IMG/VR virus record: IMGVR_UViG_3300008223_000003
Length of the DNA: 7,095 bases
Origin: a virus
Reading direction: 5' to 3' (one strand)
Positions 1,829-6,972 of the stretch are shown piece after piece (position 1 is the first letter of the stretch; every line of letters starts with the position of its first letter). The notes beneath the pieces were generated by a model, which saw only the letters and a program-made list of their open reading frames with translations, did no database searches and was not told the DNA's origin. Position numbers and translations under genes: made by a program.

Positions 1829-3301
1829 TTAACCCCCTGTAACAATTTGACGGCAATAGATAGCACAGGTAAAAAGTAATATTGCTCTTAAAAATGCTAT
1901 TACAAAATCAGGAATAGTTACCTGATAACAACCAAAATTAGCAATACCAAAATCCAAACAGACCTCGCCAAAGCCAAGATCAAGAGAACCAGATATTTCA
2001 ACGTCCCACTCAGTGACGGAATTCATCAAAGCTGAATTCATTATTGAAGCCTCATTCCTAGACCAAACATCAGAAAAACCATTAGGAAATTCAGGAGTAT
2101 AAAACCCTGTGAGATCAGGAGAGGGCGTATAGGAAATTTCTGGAAGAGCTGGAGAATTATCGGTATCAGGACAGCCTTCACCTAAACGAATAATAGAACC
2201 ATCAGGACAAGCTAAAGGGCAGACGTCAGGAACATTATTATTTGGACCTTTTGGCGTAACACCATCAGAGCAATATTCAGTGGTATCAACATCAGCACAG
2301 ACGGGTCTAGAATCCCCCTCCTCACATTCAGCTAGAAGACGCTCAAAACCATCTTGTATGGACTCGTTTACAGTATCGACAGAATCAACAACCTCATCCA
2401 ACTTAGAACTATTTTTACTAGAAGATTCATCAACAGAATCTTTGATTTGATTTAATTTATTAATATTATTCGTATCAGAATTTTTCACAGAATCATTAAG
2501 TCTATCTAGTTTCTTTTCAACCCTAGAAAGATCAACCTTATCATTTTCTGTATTTGAATCTGTATTTGAATCTGTATTTGAATCTGTATTTGAATCTGTA
2601 TTTGAATCTGTATTTGAATCTGAATCTGTATTTGGGCCTGGTGCATCAGGATCTTCTATATTAGGCTCAGGATCAAAACAACCCTGAACTGTATTACCCT
2701 CTAGGTCTGTATATGTGCCACAATTTTTATCATCCTCGACGCAAGAATATTGATTATTCATATAACCACAGCCATCAGGTATAGATTCGCATTGACCTAA
2801 AGAATTTTTTTTCTTGCCTATGCCGCAATCCTTTTCATCCTTTGAGCGGTCTGAGTTTGGATTCAGATCTGTATTAATATTTTCACCAGTACACTCATTA
2901 AACTGCAATGTGCTAGGATCGTCGTCAATTCCTGTAGAGCATTGTGATTCGCCACCATTACTACTTCCACCACTGCCGCCACTACCACCACCGCTATCAC
3001 CTCCACCACCACCATCACCGCCCTGATCGCAATCATCACCAGCAACAAAAAAGGTAGAGCAATTAAACTTACCCTCCGTATATTCTTCGCAATCAGCAGA
3101 ATAAATAGTTCCATCAGTAACACTAGCTTTCAGTTCTTCAATACTAGCTAAGTAAAGATCAGGTCTAGAAGTGGAAGTATTGCCACCATACTGAGTAGCA
3201 TTCTGATAACCGCCCGGACATTCTTCGTCTAGAGTAGAATTTGAATTAGCGGAAAATAATAGAAGTGATACAAGCAGAAAAAATAATGATTTTAGATTCA
3301 T
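1829..3301 (-). CDS. pIII-like minor coat / host adsorption protein, 490 aa from the ATG
   Basis: The ORF track start (3313) is a GTG. The ATG at 3301 gives a classic signal peptide, MNLKSLFFLLVSLLLFSANS. The N-terminal part is Cys-rich. A Gly-rich linker GGDGGGGGDSGGGSGGSGGSSNGG is encoded at about 2951-3022, and an (SNTD)n repeat follows. The block KLDEVVDSVDTVNESIQDGFERLL resembles recalled Ff g3p KLDSVATDYGAAIDGFIGDV. There is a C-terminal Cys pair plus a hydrophobic anchor, FVIAFLRAILLFTCAIYC, as in Ff g3p. Confidence 0.85.
   Translation of the reverse strand: MNLKSLFFLLVSLLLFSANSNSTLDEECPGGYQNATQYGGNTSTSRPDLYLASIEELKASVTDGTIYSADCEEYTEGKFNCSTFFVAGDDCDQGGDGGGGGDSGGGSGGSGGSSNGGESQCSTGIDDDPSTLQFNECTGENINTDLNPNSDRSKDEKDCGIGKKKNSLGQCESIPDGCGYMNNQYSCVEDDKNCGTYTDLEGNTVQGCFDPEPNIEDPDAPGPNTDSDSNTDSNTDSNTDSNTDSNTDSNTENDKVDLSRVEKKLDRLNDSVKNSDTNNINKLNQIKDSVDESSSKNSSKLDEVVDSVDTVNESIQDGFERLLAECEEGDSRPVCADVDTTEYCSDGVTPKGPNNNVPDVCPLACPDGSIIRLGEGCPDTDNSPALPEISYTPSPDLTGFYTPEFPNGFSDVWSRNEASIMNSALMNSVTEWDVEISGSLDLGFGEVCLDFGIANFGCYQVTIPDFVIAFLRAILLFTCAIYCRQIVTGG
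2547..2636 (-). repeat. 12-bp in-frame tandem repeat (tctgtatttgaa x6 perfect, then degenerate units) inside the pIII-like gene
   Basis: Six perfect units span 2547-2618, followed by tctgaa and tctgtatttggg. On the minus strand they encode DSDSNTDSNTDSNTDSNTDSNTDSNTEN. Confidence 0.95.
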
Positions 3302-4268: not shown

Positions 4269-4673
4269 TTATACGATCCTTAACTGAGGTCTTTCAGTTT
4301 TATTAGTAATATTATTTAACATCGAAGCATCTAGGCCCGCCGCCATGCGGAGATCTGGAATTTGATAATTATCAGGGGTTTGATTTCCAAAATTGATAGT
4401 GATTTCACGAATCAAAGGAACTACATTTTCATCATTATTTTCAATTGACTGGATGAATGCTTTATTCAAACCGCACTCTAAAAGTGAAGTAACACGATCA
4501 TAAAATGTTCTAGGAGGAGTGTTATCTTTTACAAACTGATAACCCATAGATTTCAATTCAAAATAAAAGCCACGCGCAGAATTAGCACGACGTCGATTAA
4601 CTCGACCATTGGAACTTACAGTGACCAAGCACTTTTCAATCTGAGCTAGAATTGTTTTATCATCTGTTTTCAT
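4269..4673 (-). CDS. Candidate pX-like protein, a 134-aa in-frame internal initiation product of rep
   Basis: The internal ATG at 4673 (aa 323 of the track ORF, FEAFEGLTIMKTDDKTILAQIEKC) aligns with the recalled M13 pX start (FEGDSMNIYDDSAVLDAIQSK). GAAGG lies 10 nt upstream. Confidence 0.45.
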   Translation of the reverse strand: MKTDDKTILAQIEKCLVTVSSNGRVNRRRANSARGFYFELKSMGYQFVKDNTPPRTFYDRVTSLLECGLNKAFIQSIENNDENVVPLIREITINFGNQTPDNYQIPDLRMAAGLDASMLNNITNKTERPQLRIV

Positions 4674-5600
4674 AATCGTTAAACCTTCAAATGCTTCGAA
4701 TATTTTATCGAATGCTAAATGCCATAAATCTTGGATCGTACTTTTCTCACGATCTGAGCAATATTTAATAAATTTAAGCATGTTTGTGGGTATGCCACAG
4801 TCCCTTAATTTTCTTGCTTTGATTCTCCCCTCGAATCTTACCATTCCAGTGCAATAATCCTTTACTGAGTAAAGCGATTTCAACCTGTCTAGTGTTCGTT
4901 TTTGGAATTTTTTATCAAGCAATTTGAAGTTTTTCTTTTTCTTTATTTTTTCTAAATCAGATATTTCATTAAGTAGTTCGGGTAACTTTAAATAAGCGAC
5001 ACGAACAATATGGGAACCGCCAGAACGGCCAGCACTACCACCAAACGTATTCCAATAAACAGAAGTTTCAAAACTAGACCTAGATTTAATTTGACCGTTA
5101 GAAGTAGTTGATAACGCTTTGATACATTGTTCTGCAAGATGTTGATTTTCAAATCTAGCAAAGTAAGTGCAATCAATTTGCATTAATTCAGAGCGAAGAA
5201 CATCGAGATCATTAAACAAAGTCGGGTATGAATCTAACAAAGTTGCTAGCATTTCCAAAAATCCAACCTTTGGATCTTCAAAACCAAAAACATTGTGCCC
5301 TTGCAAAATTTTAGCTGGTGAACATTTAAGCATCACATGCGGGAAAGGATAGCCACCGTTACCTTTAGACATGACGCAAAAAGCAACACCAGAGAAAGAG
5401 CTGGCTAATGATTCGTAAGAGTGGGTTTCGTAAGAGGACGCAATAGAGCCGCAATCATCCCTAGAGCGAGTGCTGCGAGTTTCTAAGCCATCATGCAATA
5501 TATATTCATCAAACGAAGGTAAGACAGCGCTAGAGCGATCAGGTGCAAAGATGCACTTTTCGTCTTTAAACGGTATCCTTAGTTCAAGCTTATCTATCAT
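4269..5600 (-). CDS. gpII-type rolling-circle replication initiation endonuclease, 443 aa from the ATG
   Basis: The ORF track start at 5639 is a GTG with no RBS. The ATG at 5600 gives MIDKLELRIPF, compared with recalled M13 gpII MIDMLVLRLPF. Several blocks match recalled gpII: SPAKILQGHNVFG vs SPAKVLQGHNVFG, GMVRFEGRIKAR vs GLVRFEARIKTR, DLWHLAFDKIFEAFEG vs DLWSFSFSELFKAFEG, and NVVPLIREI vs NVVPLVRFI. Confidence 0.93.
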   Translation of the reverse strand: MIDKLELRIPFKDEKCIFAPDRSSAVLPSFDEYILHDGLETRSTRSRDDCGSIASSYETHSYESLASSFSGVAFCVMSKGNGGYPFPHVMLKCSPAKILQGHNVFGFEDPKVGFLEMLATLLDSYPTLFNDLDVLRSELMQIDCTYFARFENQHLAEQCIKALSTTSNGQIKSRSSFETSVYWNTFGGSAGRSGGSHIVRVAYLKLPELLNEISDLEKIKKKKNFKLLDKKFQKRTLDRLKSLYSVKDYCTGMVRFEGRIKARKLRDCGIPTNMLKFIKYCSDREKSTIQDLWHLAFDKIFEAFEGLTIMKTDDKTILAQIEKCLVTVSSNGRVNRRRANSARGFYFELKSMGYQFVKDNTPPRTFYDRVTSLLECGLNKAFIQSIENNDENVVPLIREITINFGNQTPDNYQIPDLRMAAGLDASMLNNITNKTERPQLRIV

Positions 5601-5660
5601 TATTCCATTATCCGTGAAGATGTTACGTAAATGTAACACTCAAATAACTAAGAAATCAAT
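5601..5660. promoter_or_regulatory. Divergent rep / repressor control region with nested palindromes (candidate operator)
   Basis: Only 60 bp separate the two start codons. It contains the 8-bp palindrome TTACGTAA (5623-5630) nested in GTTAC-N6-GTAAC (5622-5637). I could not place convincing -35/-10 hexamers by eye. Confidence 0.55.
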
Positions 5661-5861
5661 ATGAAAGCATTGAAATTAATAAAATACTTAAGAAATAAAG
5701 GTTTAGAAGGACAAGAGCTAGCAGAGGCAGCAGGAACCACAAGGGCTACAATATCGAGAATTGAAAGCGGTAAAATCGAAAAACTAAATATAAACATGCT
5801 TGAAAAAGCTGCTCATTTTTTAAACAAAACACCAGACGAACTACTGTCAGAAATCGAATAA
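5661..5861 (+). CDS. XRE/Cro-C1-type helix-turn-helix transcriptional regulator, 66 aa (phage repressor-like; positional analogue of CTXphi RstR)
   Basis: HTH signature LEGQELAEAAGTTRATISRIESGK. It is the only plus-strand gene and is transcribed divergently from rep. Confidence 0.88.
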   Translation: MKALKLIKYLRNKGLEGQELAEAAGTTRATISRIESGKIEKLNINMLEKAAHFLNKTPDELLSEIE

Positions 5862-5884
5862 CTGCGCTCCACCGCACAAGAGTA

Positions 5885-5901
5885 GAACATTAAGTATGTT
5901 C
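5885..5901. promoter_or_regulatory. Perfect inverted repeat GAACAT-TAAGT-ATGTTC in the noncoding region
   Basis: Read directly from the sequence. It is a 6-bp arm with a 5-nt spacer, 24 nt after the regulator stop codon. The function is unknown; it could be a protein-binding site or an ssDNA hairpin. Confidence 0.4.
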
Positions 5902-5937
5902 AACCCCTGCGGGTTGTATCCCCGCAAGCGGGGCCCC
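5901..5937. other. GC-rich cluster of overlapping hairpins (candidate packaging signal or minus-strand origin structure)
   Basis: 27 of 37 bases are G+C in an AT-rich genome. The possible pairings are caaccc/gggttg (5901-5916), gcggg/cccgc (5909-5925), ccccg/cgggg (5920-5933) and the palindrome ggggcccc (5930-5937). No U-run follows on either strand, so it is not a typical terminator. Confidence 0.5.
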
Positions 5938-5975
5938 TCAACTCCTCGGCGCACCATATTCACCACAAAATAAGC

Positions 5976-6001
5976 TCAAACAGGGTAAAGATTCTGTTTG
6001 A
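5976..6001 (-). other. Candidate plus-strand origin nick-site hairpin, copy 1
   Basis: The minus strand reads TCAAACAG-AATCTTTACC-CTGTTTGA, an 8-bp stem with a 10-nt loop. The loop contains TCTTTA, as does the recalled Ff origin hairpin AGTCCAC-GTTCTTTAATA-GTGGACT, where gpII nicks at CTTT/AATA. The motif is on the gene-sense (presumed viral) strand, as in Ff. Confidence 0.5.
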
Positions 6002-6077
6002 CTGATTGTGAGGCTTACAAGGCATACTACGTACTTTAGCGTCGCCAAACTCCTAATCAATTCACCAAAAAATAAGC

Positions 6078-6103
6078 TCAAACAGGGTAAAGATTCTGTT
6101 TGA
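6078..6103 (-). other. Candidate plus-strand origin nick-site hairpin, copy 2
   Basis: Identical hairpin 102 bp from copy 1, within the second repeat unit. Confidence 0.5.
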
Positions 6104-6187
6104 CTGATTGTGAGGCTTACAAGGCATACTACGTACTTTAGCGTCGCCAAACTCCTAATCAGGACTACCAATAAAAAGCTATTCGCT

Positions 6188-6655
6188 TCATTTCGCCATC
6201 ATTTTTTTTGCCATCAATCTATTAAATCTTGAAGCGGTGCCTTTAAGTCCGAAAGAATTATCGTCAAGAAAGGATGTATCTTTGAAAAATAATTCAGAAC
6301 AAAAACCTCTCGAAATAAAAATGCCGTCATGATCAAAGTCTCTACCAAATATCTTTTTATATCTAACTTTTGACTCATAGCTATCATCGATAATAAACGG
6401 CATTTCAGGAATTGAACCAAACCAAGAAAAATCTTTAACCTCTTCGATCATTAAATAGTTAATCATGTAAGGGGCTAATGTTGGAGACTTCAAAGAGCTC
6501 ATTAATATAAAATCTGATGGCTCAATATCATATGACCAGACAAAAGAATCATCTTCAACACCTAAGCAATAAATTCTACAAGTATCATCATTGAGCAAAA
6601 CAGGACTTGGATTTGTTTTGCTATCGGTAAAGTCATATCCAATTATTTTAATCAT
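6188..6655 (-). CDS. 155-aa hypothetical cytoplasmic protein, downstream partner of the cargo pair
   Basis: AAGGGA lies 7 nt upstream of the ATG. The start overlaps the upstream gene stop by 8 nt (ATGATTAA). There is no signal peptide or TM segment. The protein is Asp-rich with a basic tail (RFNRLMAKKMMAK). I recognise no family motif. Confidence 0.75.
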   Translation of the reverse strand: MIKIIGYDFTDSKTNPSPVLLNDDTCRIYCLGVEDDSFVWSYDIEPSDFILMSSLKSPTLAPYMINYLMIEEVKDFSWFGSIPEMPFIIDDSYESKVRYKKIFGRDFDHDGIFISRGFCSELFFKDTSFLDDNSFGLKGTASRFNRLMAKKMMAK

Positions 6656-6923
6656 TTAAAAATCCCTTAATTTTATTTTCAAGTAATATTTTTTCAGAAA
6701 GAAGCTCTTTGAGTTCATTATAGTCAGCTTGTAAAGCTTCTAAATCACATTCTAATTCATATTTTGATTCTGTCTTATGCTGTGCCATTTGAAGCCACAT
6801 CACTATAGCGCTTGTGTCAGTTTTAAGATTCCAAGTCTTTTTTATATATTCCAAAGACTTTAGAGCCTCATTATGACTAGAAGTATTACCGTTAAGCCTT
6901 AAAGTTAGCGTTTTTGATGTCAT
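6648..6923 (-). CDS. 91-aa protein with a ribbon-helix-helix-like N-terminus and a coiled-coil-like C-terminus, upstream partner of the cargo pair
   Basis: AGGGA lies 7 nt upstream of the ATG. KTLTLRL looks like a beta strand, followed by helix-turn-helix-like segments (SSHNEALKSLEYIKKTW / TDTSAIVMWLQMAQ) in a CopG/Arc/ParD-like pattern. The C-terminus is heptad-like (LEALQADYNELKELLSEKILLENKIKGFL). The fold assignment comes from pattern reading only. Confidence 0.7.
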   Translation of the reverse strand: MTSKTLTLRLNGNTSSHNEALKSLEYIKKTWNLKTDTSAIVMWLQMAQHKTESKYELECDLEALQADYNELKELLSEKILLENKIKGFLND

Positions 6924-6972
6924 TTTGATGTCCCTGGGTTAGTTTAAATCGTTAATATGCTACCAAGATAAC

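Follow-up and report, generated by a model that had tools for sequence, protein, structure and literature searches.

We analysed a 7,095-nucleotide stretch of viral DNA (IMG/VR record IMGVR_UViG_3300008223_000003; hereafter the window, meaning the whole stretch) in which a 102-nt sequence is repeated in tandem close to a predicted replication origin. The window begins and ends with the same 123 bases, giving a circular inovirus genome of 6,972 bp with inovirus gene content, in which all structural and replication genes lie on the minus strand. Since the packaged strand of inoviruses carries the gene sense, the viral strand corresponds to the minus strand of the window. The repeat sits in a 326-nt gap between orf155 and the 3′ end of a helix-turn-helix (HTH) regulator gene, and the features of the gap and of the genes that follow it in the direction of the viral strand are listed below.

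6060 to 6161, minus strand: repeat unit, 5′ copy in the gene sense; T variant (A at 6068 on the plus strand)
6119 to 6158, minus strand: conserved 40-nt block TTAGGAGTTTGGCGACGCTAAAGTACGTAGTATGCCTTGT of the 5′ copy; identical at 38 of 40 positions to the units of L002 and L076, two genomes of a second lineage
6078 to 6103, minus strand: hairpin of the 5′ copy, TCAAACAG / loop AATCTTTACC / CTGTTTGA, then GCTTATTTTTTGG
5958 to 6059, minus strand: repeat unit, 3′ copy, adjoining the origin; G variant (C at 5966 on the plus strand), as in the one-copy genomes L019 and L021
6017 to 6056, minus strand: conserved 40-nt block of the 3′ copy, as in the 5′ copy
5976 to 6001, minus strand: hairpin of the 3′ copy, TCAAACAG-AATCTTTACC-CTGTTTGA, identical to that of the 5′ copy
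5901 to 5933, minus strand: two G+C-rich mini-hairpins leading from the repeat to the origin, CCCCGC-TT-GCGGGG and CAACCC-GCAG-GGGTTG in the gene sense; −11 kcal/mol
5856 to 5906, minus strand: predicted plus-strand origin core, single copy, placed by alignment to M13 and IKe and by covariation
5882 to 5904, minus strand: origin hairpin D, with the loop ATACTTAAT at 5889 to 5897
5876 to 5883, minus strand: invariant origin sequence ACTCTTGT, directly 3′ of the nick hairpin
5862 to 5877, minus strand: origin hairpin E (second inverted repeat), 3′ of ACTCTTGT
5661 to 5861, plus strand: XRE-type HTH regulator gene, divergent from Rep; its stop codon is one base from hairpin E
4269 to 5600 (alternative start 5639), minus strand: gpII-type Rep, identified by Pfam domains and similarity to Ff gpII

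The duplication was reported by Tandem Repeats Finder at 5958-6161 with a period of 102, 2.0 copies and 99% matches, and direct comparison of the two copies found them identical at 101 of 102 positions. Their sole difference is C at 5966 versus A at 6068 on the plus strand, which is G versus T in the gene sense. Extending the repeat gains 0 bases on either side, and the junction therefore shows no microhomology. An earlier note on this DNA had placed a near-perfect 102-bp duplication at 5959-6162 with 100 of 102 identical positions; the duplication was confirmed, while its frame was one base off, and the lower count resulted from that shift. The same note had drawn a hairpin in each copy, and both are present at the positions listed. 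It had also called the Rep protein gpII-type, in agreement with our Pfam matches to Phage_CRI (3.7e-37) and G2P_X_C (2.3e-13) and with the 34.5% identity to Ff gpII across 93% of the length.

Each unit consists of a near-invariant 40-nt block and a hairpin whose 10-nt loop is conserved, joined by a linker that varies, and the two units together span 52-255 nt 5′ (upstream) of the plus-strand origin on the viral strand. Within the block there is a 15-bp quasi-palindrome, TTTGGCG-A-CGCTAAA, located at 6137-6151 in the 5′ copy and 6035-6049 in the 3′ copy, which is confined to the units and occurs nowhere else in the genome. The hairpin has an 8-bp stem and a 10-nt loop, and its single-stranded DNA fold was calculated as −5.7 kcal/mol with z = −4.1. 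Hairpins with a perfect 8-bp stem are not rare by themselves (five in the window, where shuffled sequences had 1.6 on average and at most 6), and the loop word TCTTTA occurs five times on the gene-sense strand; the unit hairpin is nevertheless credible because it is conserved in a second lineage. A coding role for the repeat was considered and rejected. The 77-residue open reading frame at 5938-6171 can cross both copies simply because 102 is divisible by 3, the AGGAG is just 1 nt from the nearest start codon, and the equivalent frame in L002, in our own reading of the sequence, meets a stop after about 16-19 codons.

The predicted plus-strand origin is located outside the repeat, at 5856-5906. 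The loop of hairpin D reads ATACTT|AAT and is followed by ACTCTTGT and then by the second inverted repeat. This element aligns without gaps to the core origins of M13 and IKe from the nick motif through CTCTTGT, where the aligned M13 origin is AGTCCAC-GTTCTTTAATA-GTGGACT-CTTGTTCC-AAACT-GGAAC, and the spacing of 6 nt from AAT to CTCTTGT is identical in the window, M13 and IKe. In M13, the first hairpin is nicked within its loop, at CTTT/AAT between 5781 and 5782 (PMC11765958). By alignment, the predicted nick in the window separates minus-strand bases 5892 and 5891, and its distance to the closest repeat boundary is 66 nt. Compared with the plus origins of the Ff phages (M13/f1/fd) and IKe, the window element has the same architecture, the same spacing, the TT|AAT loop and an inverted repeat after CTTGT. 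The stem sequences, however, differ from those of Ff, the loop is 9 nt rather than 11 nt, and in place of the A+T-rich enhancer side of Ff the window has the 3′ end of the antisense HTH gene.

To place the element among its relatives, we gathered related genomes via Rep from IMG/VR loci, from a search of 5.8 billion proteins with contig look-ups and from a DNA pattern scan; contigs P0006 and P0014 did not reach into the intergenic region. Twelve lineages with Rep proteins 49-100% identical were aligned (the window, L001, L002, L003, L026, L031, L034, L035, L037, L072, L073 and L074). The origin element stood beside the stop codon of the HTH gene in 12 of 12 lineages, with the consensus GTAGAAC-ATACTTAAT-GTTCTAC, then TCTTGT, then a short inverted repeat, and both its loop and ACTCTTGT were invariant or nearly so. 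Both origin stems covary: 87.8% of the cells were paired, 8 of the 13 pairs had changed on both sides, none of 500 shuffles was as good, and shifting the stem partners by 1-3 columns abolished the signal. Stem D, for instance, reads GTAGAAC/GTTCTAC in the majority of lineages, and L072 and L073 have GTGCTGC/GCAGCAC instead. A like architecture was present in seven distant gpII-type phages. In L002, L076 and L077, the origin loop is ATACTGGAT in place of ATACTTAAT, a TT-to-GG change that gives TGGAT for TTAAT (for example at 171-191 of L002); it falls exactly at the aligned Ff nick position, is found in three independent assemblies, and leaves the rest of the L002/L076 origin intact.

The earlier note had read the repeat as a duplicated plus-strand origin, with a gpII nick site in each unit. 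This claim was not supported, given the single-copy origin at 5856-5906, conserved with covariation. The unit hairpin was missing in at least nine lineages with a homologous Rep, an outcome that the note itself had named as refuting, whereas the origin element was present in all 12. The features of the unit hairpin also speak against a gpII nick site, as its loop AATCTTTACC is without TTAAT, unlike the clade loop ATACTTAAT. When ACTCTTGT and a second inverted repeat were sought 3′ of the unit hairpin, neither was found, and GAGCTTATTTT follows instead. The sole part that the unit shares with the Ff origin is TCTTTA, and the 6-7-nt word in common with the Ff loop is at the level of chance. Considering that the complete intergenic region of L035 is 98 nt, composed of one G+C-rich hairpin and the origin, and is without the unit, the unit is not needed for replication.

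Two further contigs had an unusual layout. A 27-kb IMG/VR contig of a distant gpII-type phage, L129, contains two identical origin cores at 1143 and 7340, 6,197 nt apart, and its genomes may be arranged in tandem or integrated. The contig L083 is palindromic, carries Rep on each of its strands and probably arose by chimeric assembly.

One-copy and two-copy genomes of the window phage are both present in public assemblies, in keeping with the mixed population that the earlier note had proposed. On the two-copy side, besides the window itself, contig L079 (JGI 3300008249) has the junction GGTGAAT|TGATTAGG together with the right flank, the complete G-variant copy and the greater part of the T-variant copy. 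In L022, assembled from the sample that yielded L079, the left flank is connected to the T variant. In addition, Logan k=31 contigs from SRR5469034, SRR5469066 and SRR5469068 end exactly at the branch points that a two-copy genome would produce, which lie 30 nt short of the variant base and 30 nt inside the unit. Because L079 contains the junction, L022 has the left flank next to the T variant and the Logan contigs end at these branch points, the duplication is not an artefact of the window assembly. On the one-copy side, L021 (JGI 3300025397), otherwise identical to the window, runs from the left to the right flank via one G-variant copy, and L019 (ENA ERZ511469), a strain 99.8% identical, likewise has one G-variant copy between the flanks.

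The unit is known from the window lineage and one other, L002/L076/L077, whose Rep is 75% identical to the window Rep. Exact-word scans of IMG/VR for the block and the loop gave L002 as the one true match, the other 13 and 34 matches being due to chance, and a covariance model of the unit run over 90 loci detected no further homologue (best E-value 0.11). L003, L034 and L035, whose Rep proteins come closest to that of L002 (86-89% identical), are all without the unit, which therefore behaves as an exchangeable intergenic cassette. Between the two lineages, the 40-nt block TTAGGAG-Y-TTGGCGACGCTAAAGTACG-Y-AGTATGCCTTGT is 38/40 identical, and the roughly 20 nt after it cannot be aligned. The hairpin keeps its loop (AWTCTTTACC) and inner stem, and its two outer pairs change on both sides. 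Changes on one side of the stem give G-T/G-C or T-G/C-G pairs in the gene sense and A-C mismatches on the other strand, which is a weak hint that the gene-sense strand alone may be the working form of the unit, be it as viral DNA or as sense RNA. A G+C-rich mini-hairpin of the CCCGCTTGCGGG type is common to the window and L002/L076 only, and other relatives have a different G+C-rich hairpin there.

In the second lineage, the unit has been amplified further. L076 (JGI 3300076247) is a circular contig of 6,490 bp with a 127-nt overlap and a Rep identical to that of L002, and it contains four tandem units with a period of 107 where L002 (6,169 bp) contains one, in agreement with the lengths of the two genomes (6,169 + 3 × 107 = 6,490). 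The four cores are identical and the junctions differ (GGTCTTTATTAGGAGT versus GCTCTGTTTTAGGAGC), so the array grew in steps and lasted long enough to mutate; two of the junctions are identical, so four copies are a minimum. As the boundaries and the period differ from those of the window, the two amplifications were independent. No long-period intergenic repeat was found in about ten unit-less relatives or in 75 distant gpII-type inoviruses, and hence the amplification is specific to the unit. The persistence of the array argues for extra copies being tolerated or selected for.

Several smaller repeats accompany the unit in these genomes. Directly after the unit array, at 82-108 of L002 and 229-255 of L076, the short direct repeat GGTCTGATT(G) occurs three times. 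The word CTGATT recurs at the start of the unit, in the hairpin stem of L002 and in a motif following the Zot gene throughout the clade. The 78-nt terminal overlap of the circular contig L002 falls wholly inside the unit core, which may be chance (about 1-3%) or may reflect unresolved extra copies.

Taken all together, we are highly confident in the joint conclusion that the true plus-strand origin is elsewhere than the repeat, that the unit is an accessory cassette, and that its copy number varies. As a mechanism, Rep would nick the single-copy origin at 5856-5906 and would not use the unit as a nick site. Rolling-circle termination would then not collapse the tandem units, and their copy number could drift, or be selected, through slippage or unequal recombination. 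The best explanation as a whole combines this origin with an accessory, copy-variable unit that has a role on the viral strand, and we hold it tentatively, with rather less than even confidence.

For that role we favour, with low confidence, a cis signal on the viral strand, most likely an extra one, that would aid initiation of the complementary (minus) strand, or replication, with dosage effects. It would act together with the adjacent G+C-rich hairpin, and its effect may scale with copy number. The position and orientation of the unit match those of the Ff/IKe minus-strand origin, in the order last gene, signal(s), plus origin of the IKe annotation. Long invariant stretches are likewise a feature of the Ff and IKe minus origins, and among rolling-circle plasmids the single-strand origins can be exchanged as cassettes. 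The unit is comparable to both in its site upstream of the plus origin with a fixed orientation, in its conserved hairpin loop and long invariant stretch, and in its dispensability and cassette-like distribution among close relatives. It differs from them in that no sequence similarity is detectable and in that its structure is much smaller.

Several points weigh against this reading. The unit is found in two lineages only, so the covariation evidence for it is thin, and the relatives manage without it. The fold of the whole unit has z = −1.7 and is not strongly structured; the A+T-rich hairpin alone is structured, weakly, at −5.7 kcal/mol. Homology to the minus-origin or packaging region of Ff/IKe, which had been suspected from the words ACGTAGT and ACGCTAAA, was rejected, as alignments of the unit to these regions of M13 and IKe were at chance level (p 0.36-0.9). 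The G+C-rich hairpins of the window itself could supply both the minus origin and the packaging signal. We know of no precedent for tandem iteration of minus-strand origins, nor of a counterpart of variable-copy iteration of such a unit among Ff/IKe minus origins or plasmid single-strand origins. The 15-bp quasi-palindrome could just as well belong to a site bound by a protein on double-stranded DNA. Finally, the one-copy contigs could in principle be an assembler collapse, the coverage of L019 being merely 4.3x.

The last but one of these points leads to an alternative that we consider unlikely, namely an iteron-like array in the double-stranded replicative form, in which each unit binds a phage or host protein (for example at TTTGGCG-A-CGCTAAA) and the number of sites tunes replication, origin-ward transcription or titration of a factor. 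The earlier note had offered an iteron-like array as its own alternative, and recurrent amplification is compatible with it: tandem direct repeats adjoin the origin and were amplified independently in two lineages, the invariant block holds a quasi-palindrome unique in the genome, and in the arrays the cores are identical while the junctions vary. Plasmid iterons and centromere-like repeats of the sopC type are likewise direct repeats at an origin, with an internal inverted repeat and a copy number that varies among close relatives. However, their period is about 20-43 bp (about 17-22 bp for iterons), far exceeded by the 102-107 nt of the unit, and plasmid iterons occur in every replicon of a family, whereas the unit is missing from most relatives. 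The Rep of the window phage is a rolling-circle nickase rather than an iteron-binding initiator, and the phage has no partition genes. The covarying stem around a conserved loop and the strand-asymmetric wobble point to a single-stranded form, and a palindrome matching at 6 of 7 positions is statistically unremarkable. The phage's own HTH regulator was also considered as the binding protein, and an HTH operator array was rejected, since the palindrome conserved near the HTH gene, GTTAC-N6-GTAAC, is missing from the unit and neither HTH type nor HTH similarity tracks the unit.

A broader formulation of the single-strand signal, in which the unit would be a hitherto undescribed type of dosage-tunable cis element of filamentous phages, about 100 nt long with an invariant block and a loop-specific hairpin, that is exchanged as a cassette between lineages and repeatedly amplified in tandem for an advantage in replication or packaging over co-resident genomes, appears to us distinctly unlikely.

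We consider it improbable that the unit acts as an RNA element, either as a small RNA gene in each unit or as a 3′ end or terminator for the orf91-orf155 transcript that shields the origin and the antisense HTH gene. In the window, a T-run (GCTTATTTTTTGG) follows the hairpin and is lengthened by the T variant, the conserved single-stranded block and loop resemble the seed regions of small RNAs, and the wobble-compatible changes would fit RNA. In L002/L076, however, there is neither a T-run after the hairpin nor a usable −35 element, and L002 has no gene upstream of the unit to terminate. The earlier note had also pointed to a promoter at the copy junction, TTGATT-16-TAAAGT. This weak −35/−10 pair matches at 8 of 12 positions, below the scan threshold of 9, its −35 is not conserved in related arrays, and the scan reported no promoter-like or terminator-like site in the repeat. 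No Rfam match was obtained for the unit, and no conserved complementary target (antisense or kissing) of the block or loop was found within the phage genomes.

There is a low probability that the extra copy is functionless, having arisen from a conserved one-copy element either recently, as a neutral duplication by slippage, or as an artefact of assembly. In its favor, the two copies differ at a single base, and the one-copy genomes are otherwise identical or 99.8% identical to the window. Against it stand the junction in independent contigs and samples, the independent amplification in the second lineage with other boundaries, another period and junctions that have since diverged, and the absence of such repeats from the other intergenic elements of about 85 related genomes.

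Lower still is the probability that the unit is a packaging (morphogenetic) signal or a helper of one, extra copies of which would improve packaging in competition. The unit immediately follows the last gene, lies upstream of the remaining origin elements and has the same orientation in both lineages; this placement fits the IKe annotation order of morphogenetic signal, minus origin and plus origin. Known packaging signals are long, stable hairpins, whereas the unit hairpin is short, A+T-rich and at −5.7 kcal/mol only weakly stable. The nearby G+C-rich hairpins are better candidates, and most relatives are without the unit.

Least probable of all, with a very slight chance, is that each unit hairpin is a gpII-type nick site after all, so that two same-orientation plus origins, or an origin and a terminator, would yield one-copy genomes and 102-nt minicircles. 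In its favor are the TCTTTA in the unit loop, extended in L076 to TTCTTTA with 7 nt of the M13 nick loop, the coexistence of one-copy and two-copy genomes, the odd TT-to-GG change in the canonical origin loop of the sole other unit-bearing lineage, and a recent paper reporting that, in supercoiled DNA, nicking of M13 can occur at the nick hairpin by itself (PMC11765958). These are outweighed by the features that the unit lacks, by its absence from so many relatives, by the chance level of the 7-nt loop match and by the far better, universally conserved origin homologue nearby. The array of L076 adds a further argument. In two-origin constructs of f1, origins of the same orientation are resolved to one per round. 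L076 retains at least four same-orientation units with diverged junctions, and the persistence of such an array, where same-orientation origins should be resolved, argues against the units being working origins. We give a small probability to a related possibility, that the unit hairpin may be a secondary Rep-recognised site, relevant in the L002/L076 lineage with its TGGAT loop.

For annotation, homology and covariation here locate the plus-strand origin in an uncultured clade of gpII-type inoviruses, and the results illustrate that a hairpin merely resembling the Ff nick site can mislead. An intergenic cis element adjoining a rolling-circle origin is a known kind of feature; what is new here is an optional, copy-variable unit, which contains a near-invariant block of 40 nt and has undergone independent amplification in both lineages where it is found. 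If its copy number affects replication or packaging, the unit would be a natural case of cis-element dosage evolution in a single-stranded DNA phage, comparable with the origin duplications of laboratory miniphages; if it is neutral, it is an ordinary repeat polymorphism. Origin-region duplications of Ff miniphages, which are defective interfering genomes, and the window repeat are both intergenic tandem duplications near a gpII-type origin with a plausibly selected advantage in cis. They differ in that the window phage has full-length genomes and its duplication leaves out the origin core.

In the remainder of the genome, the minus-strand genes encode a single-strand-binding protein, the major coat protein, a g3-like protein, a g6/Ace-like protein and Zot, together with the orphans orf91 and orf155. 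The two orphans form an accessory insert (6188-6923, minus strand) between the Zot-side module and the repeat, which is missing from all relatives. Neither matched Pfam or PHROG, and orf155 had no homologue outside the window phage among 5.8 billion proteins, so the gene neighborhood gives no hint of the function of the unit. Neither the whole genome nor the intergenic region showed DNA similarity to GenBank phages or PLSDB plasmids. Patterns based on the Rep protein alone matched nothing in the metagenome and GTDB genome collections, and the DNA pattern of the origin matched no GTDB genome.

The 60-nt spacer between the HTH and Rep genes contains the palindrome GTTAC-ATTTAC-GTAAC at 5622-5637 (minus strand), and GTTAC-N6-GTAAC, with variants, is kept in this spacer in all relatives; it is probably the HTH operator or a Rep leader element. 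The palindrome overlaps the GTG at 5639, and the most likely start of Rep is therefore the ATG at 5600 (MIDKLELR...), which probably is correct as it also agrees with database proteins.

The gap after Zot (1-177 and 6924-6972, minus strand) has two direct repeats of a motif of about 19 nt, GATCAACCTCTTTTGATCT at about 135-153 and GATCAACGTCTTTTTATCT at about 34-52, which flank a conserved ATGGGCGCATA(T) with an imperfect inverted partner. This module is kept in L001, L002/L076, L030, L034 and L037, is reduced to a single motif in L003 and is missing in L035. It resembles a XerC arm, and no full dif-like site was found; a search of the window for a dif-like XerCD site gave no convincing 28-mer. 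Within the g3-like gene, a perfect 12-nt tandem repeat at 2547-2622 is present in 6.3 copies and encodes (TDSN)n, and the Logan contigs break there too. Further Gly/Ser-rich repeats are located at 2963-3019.

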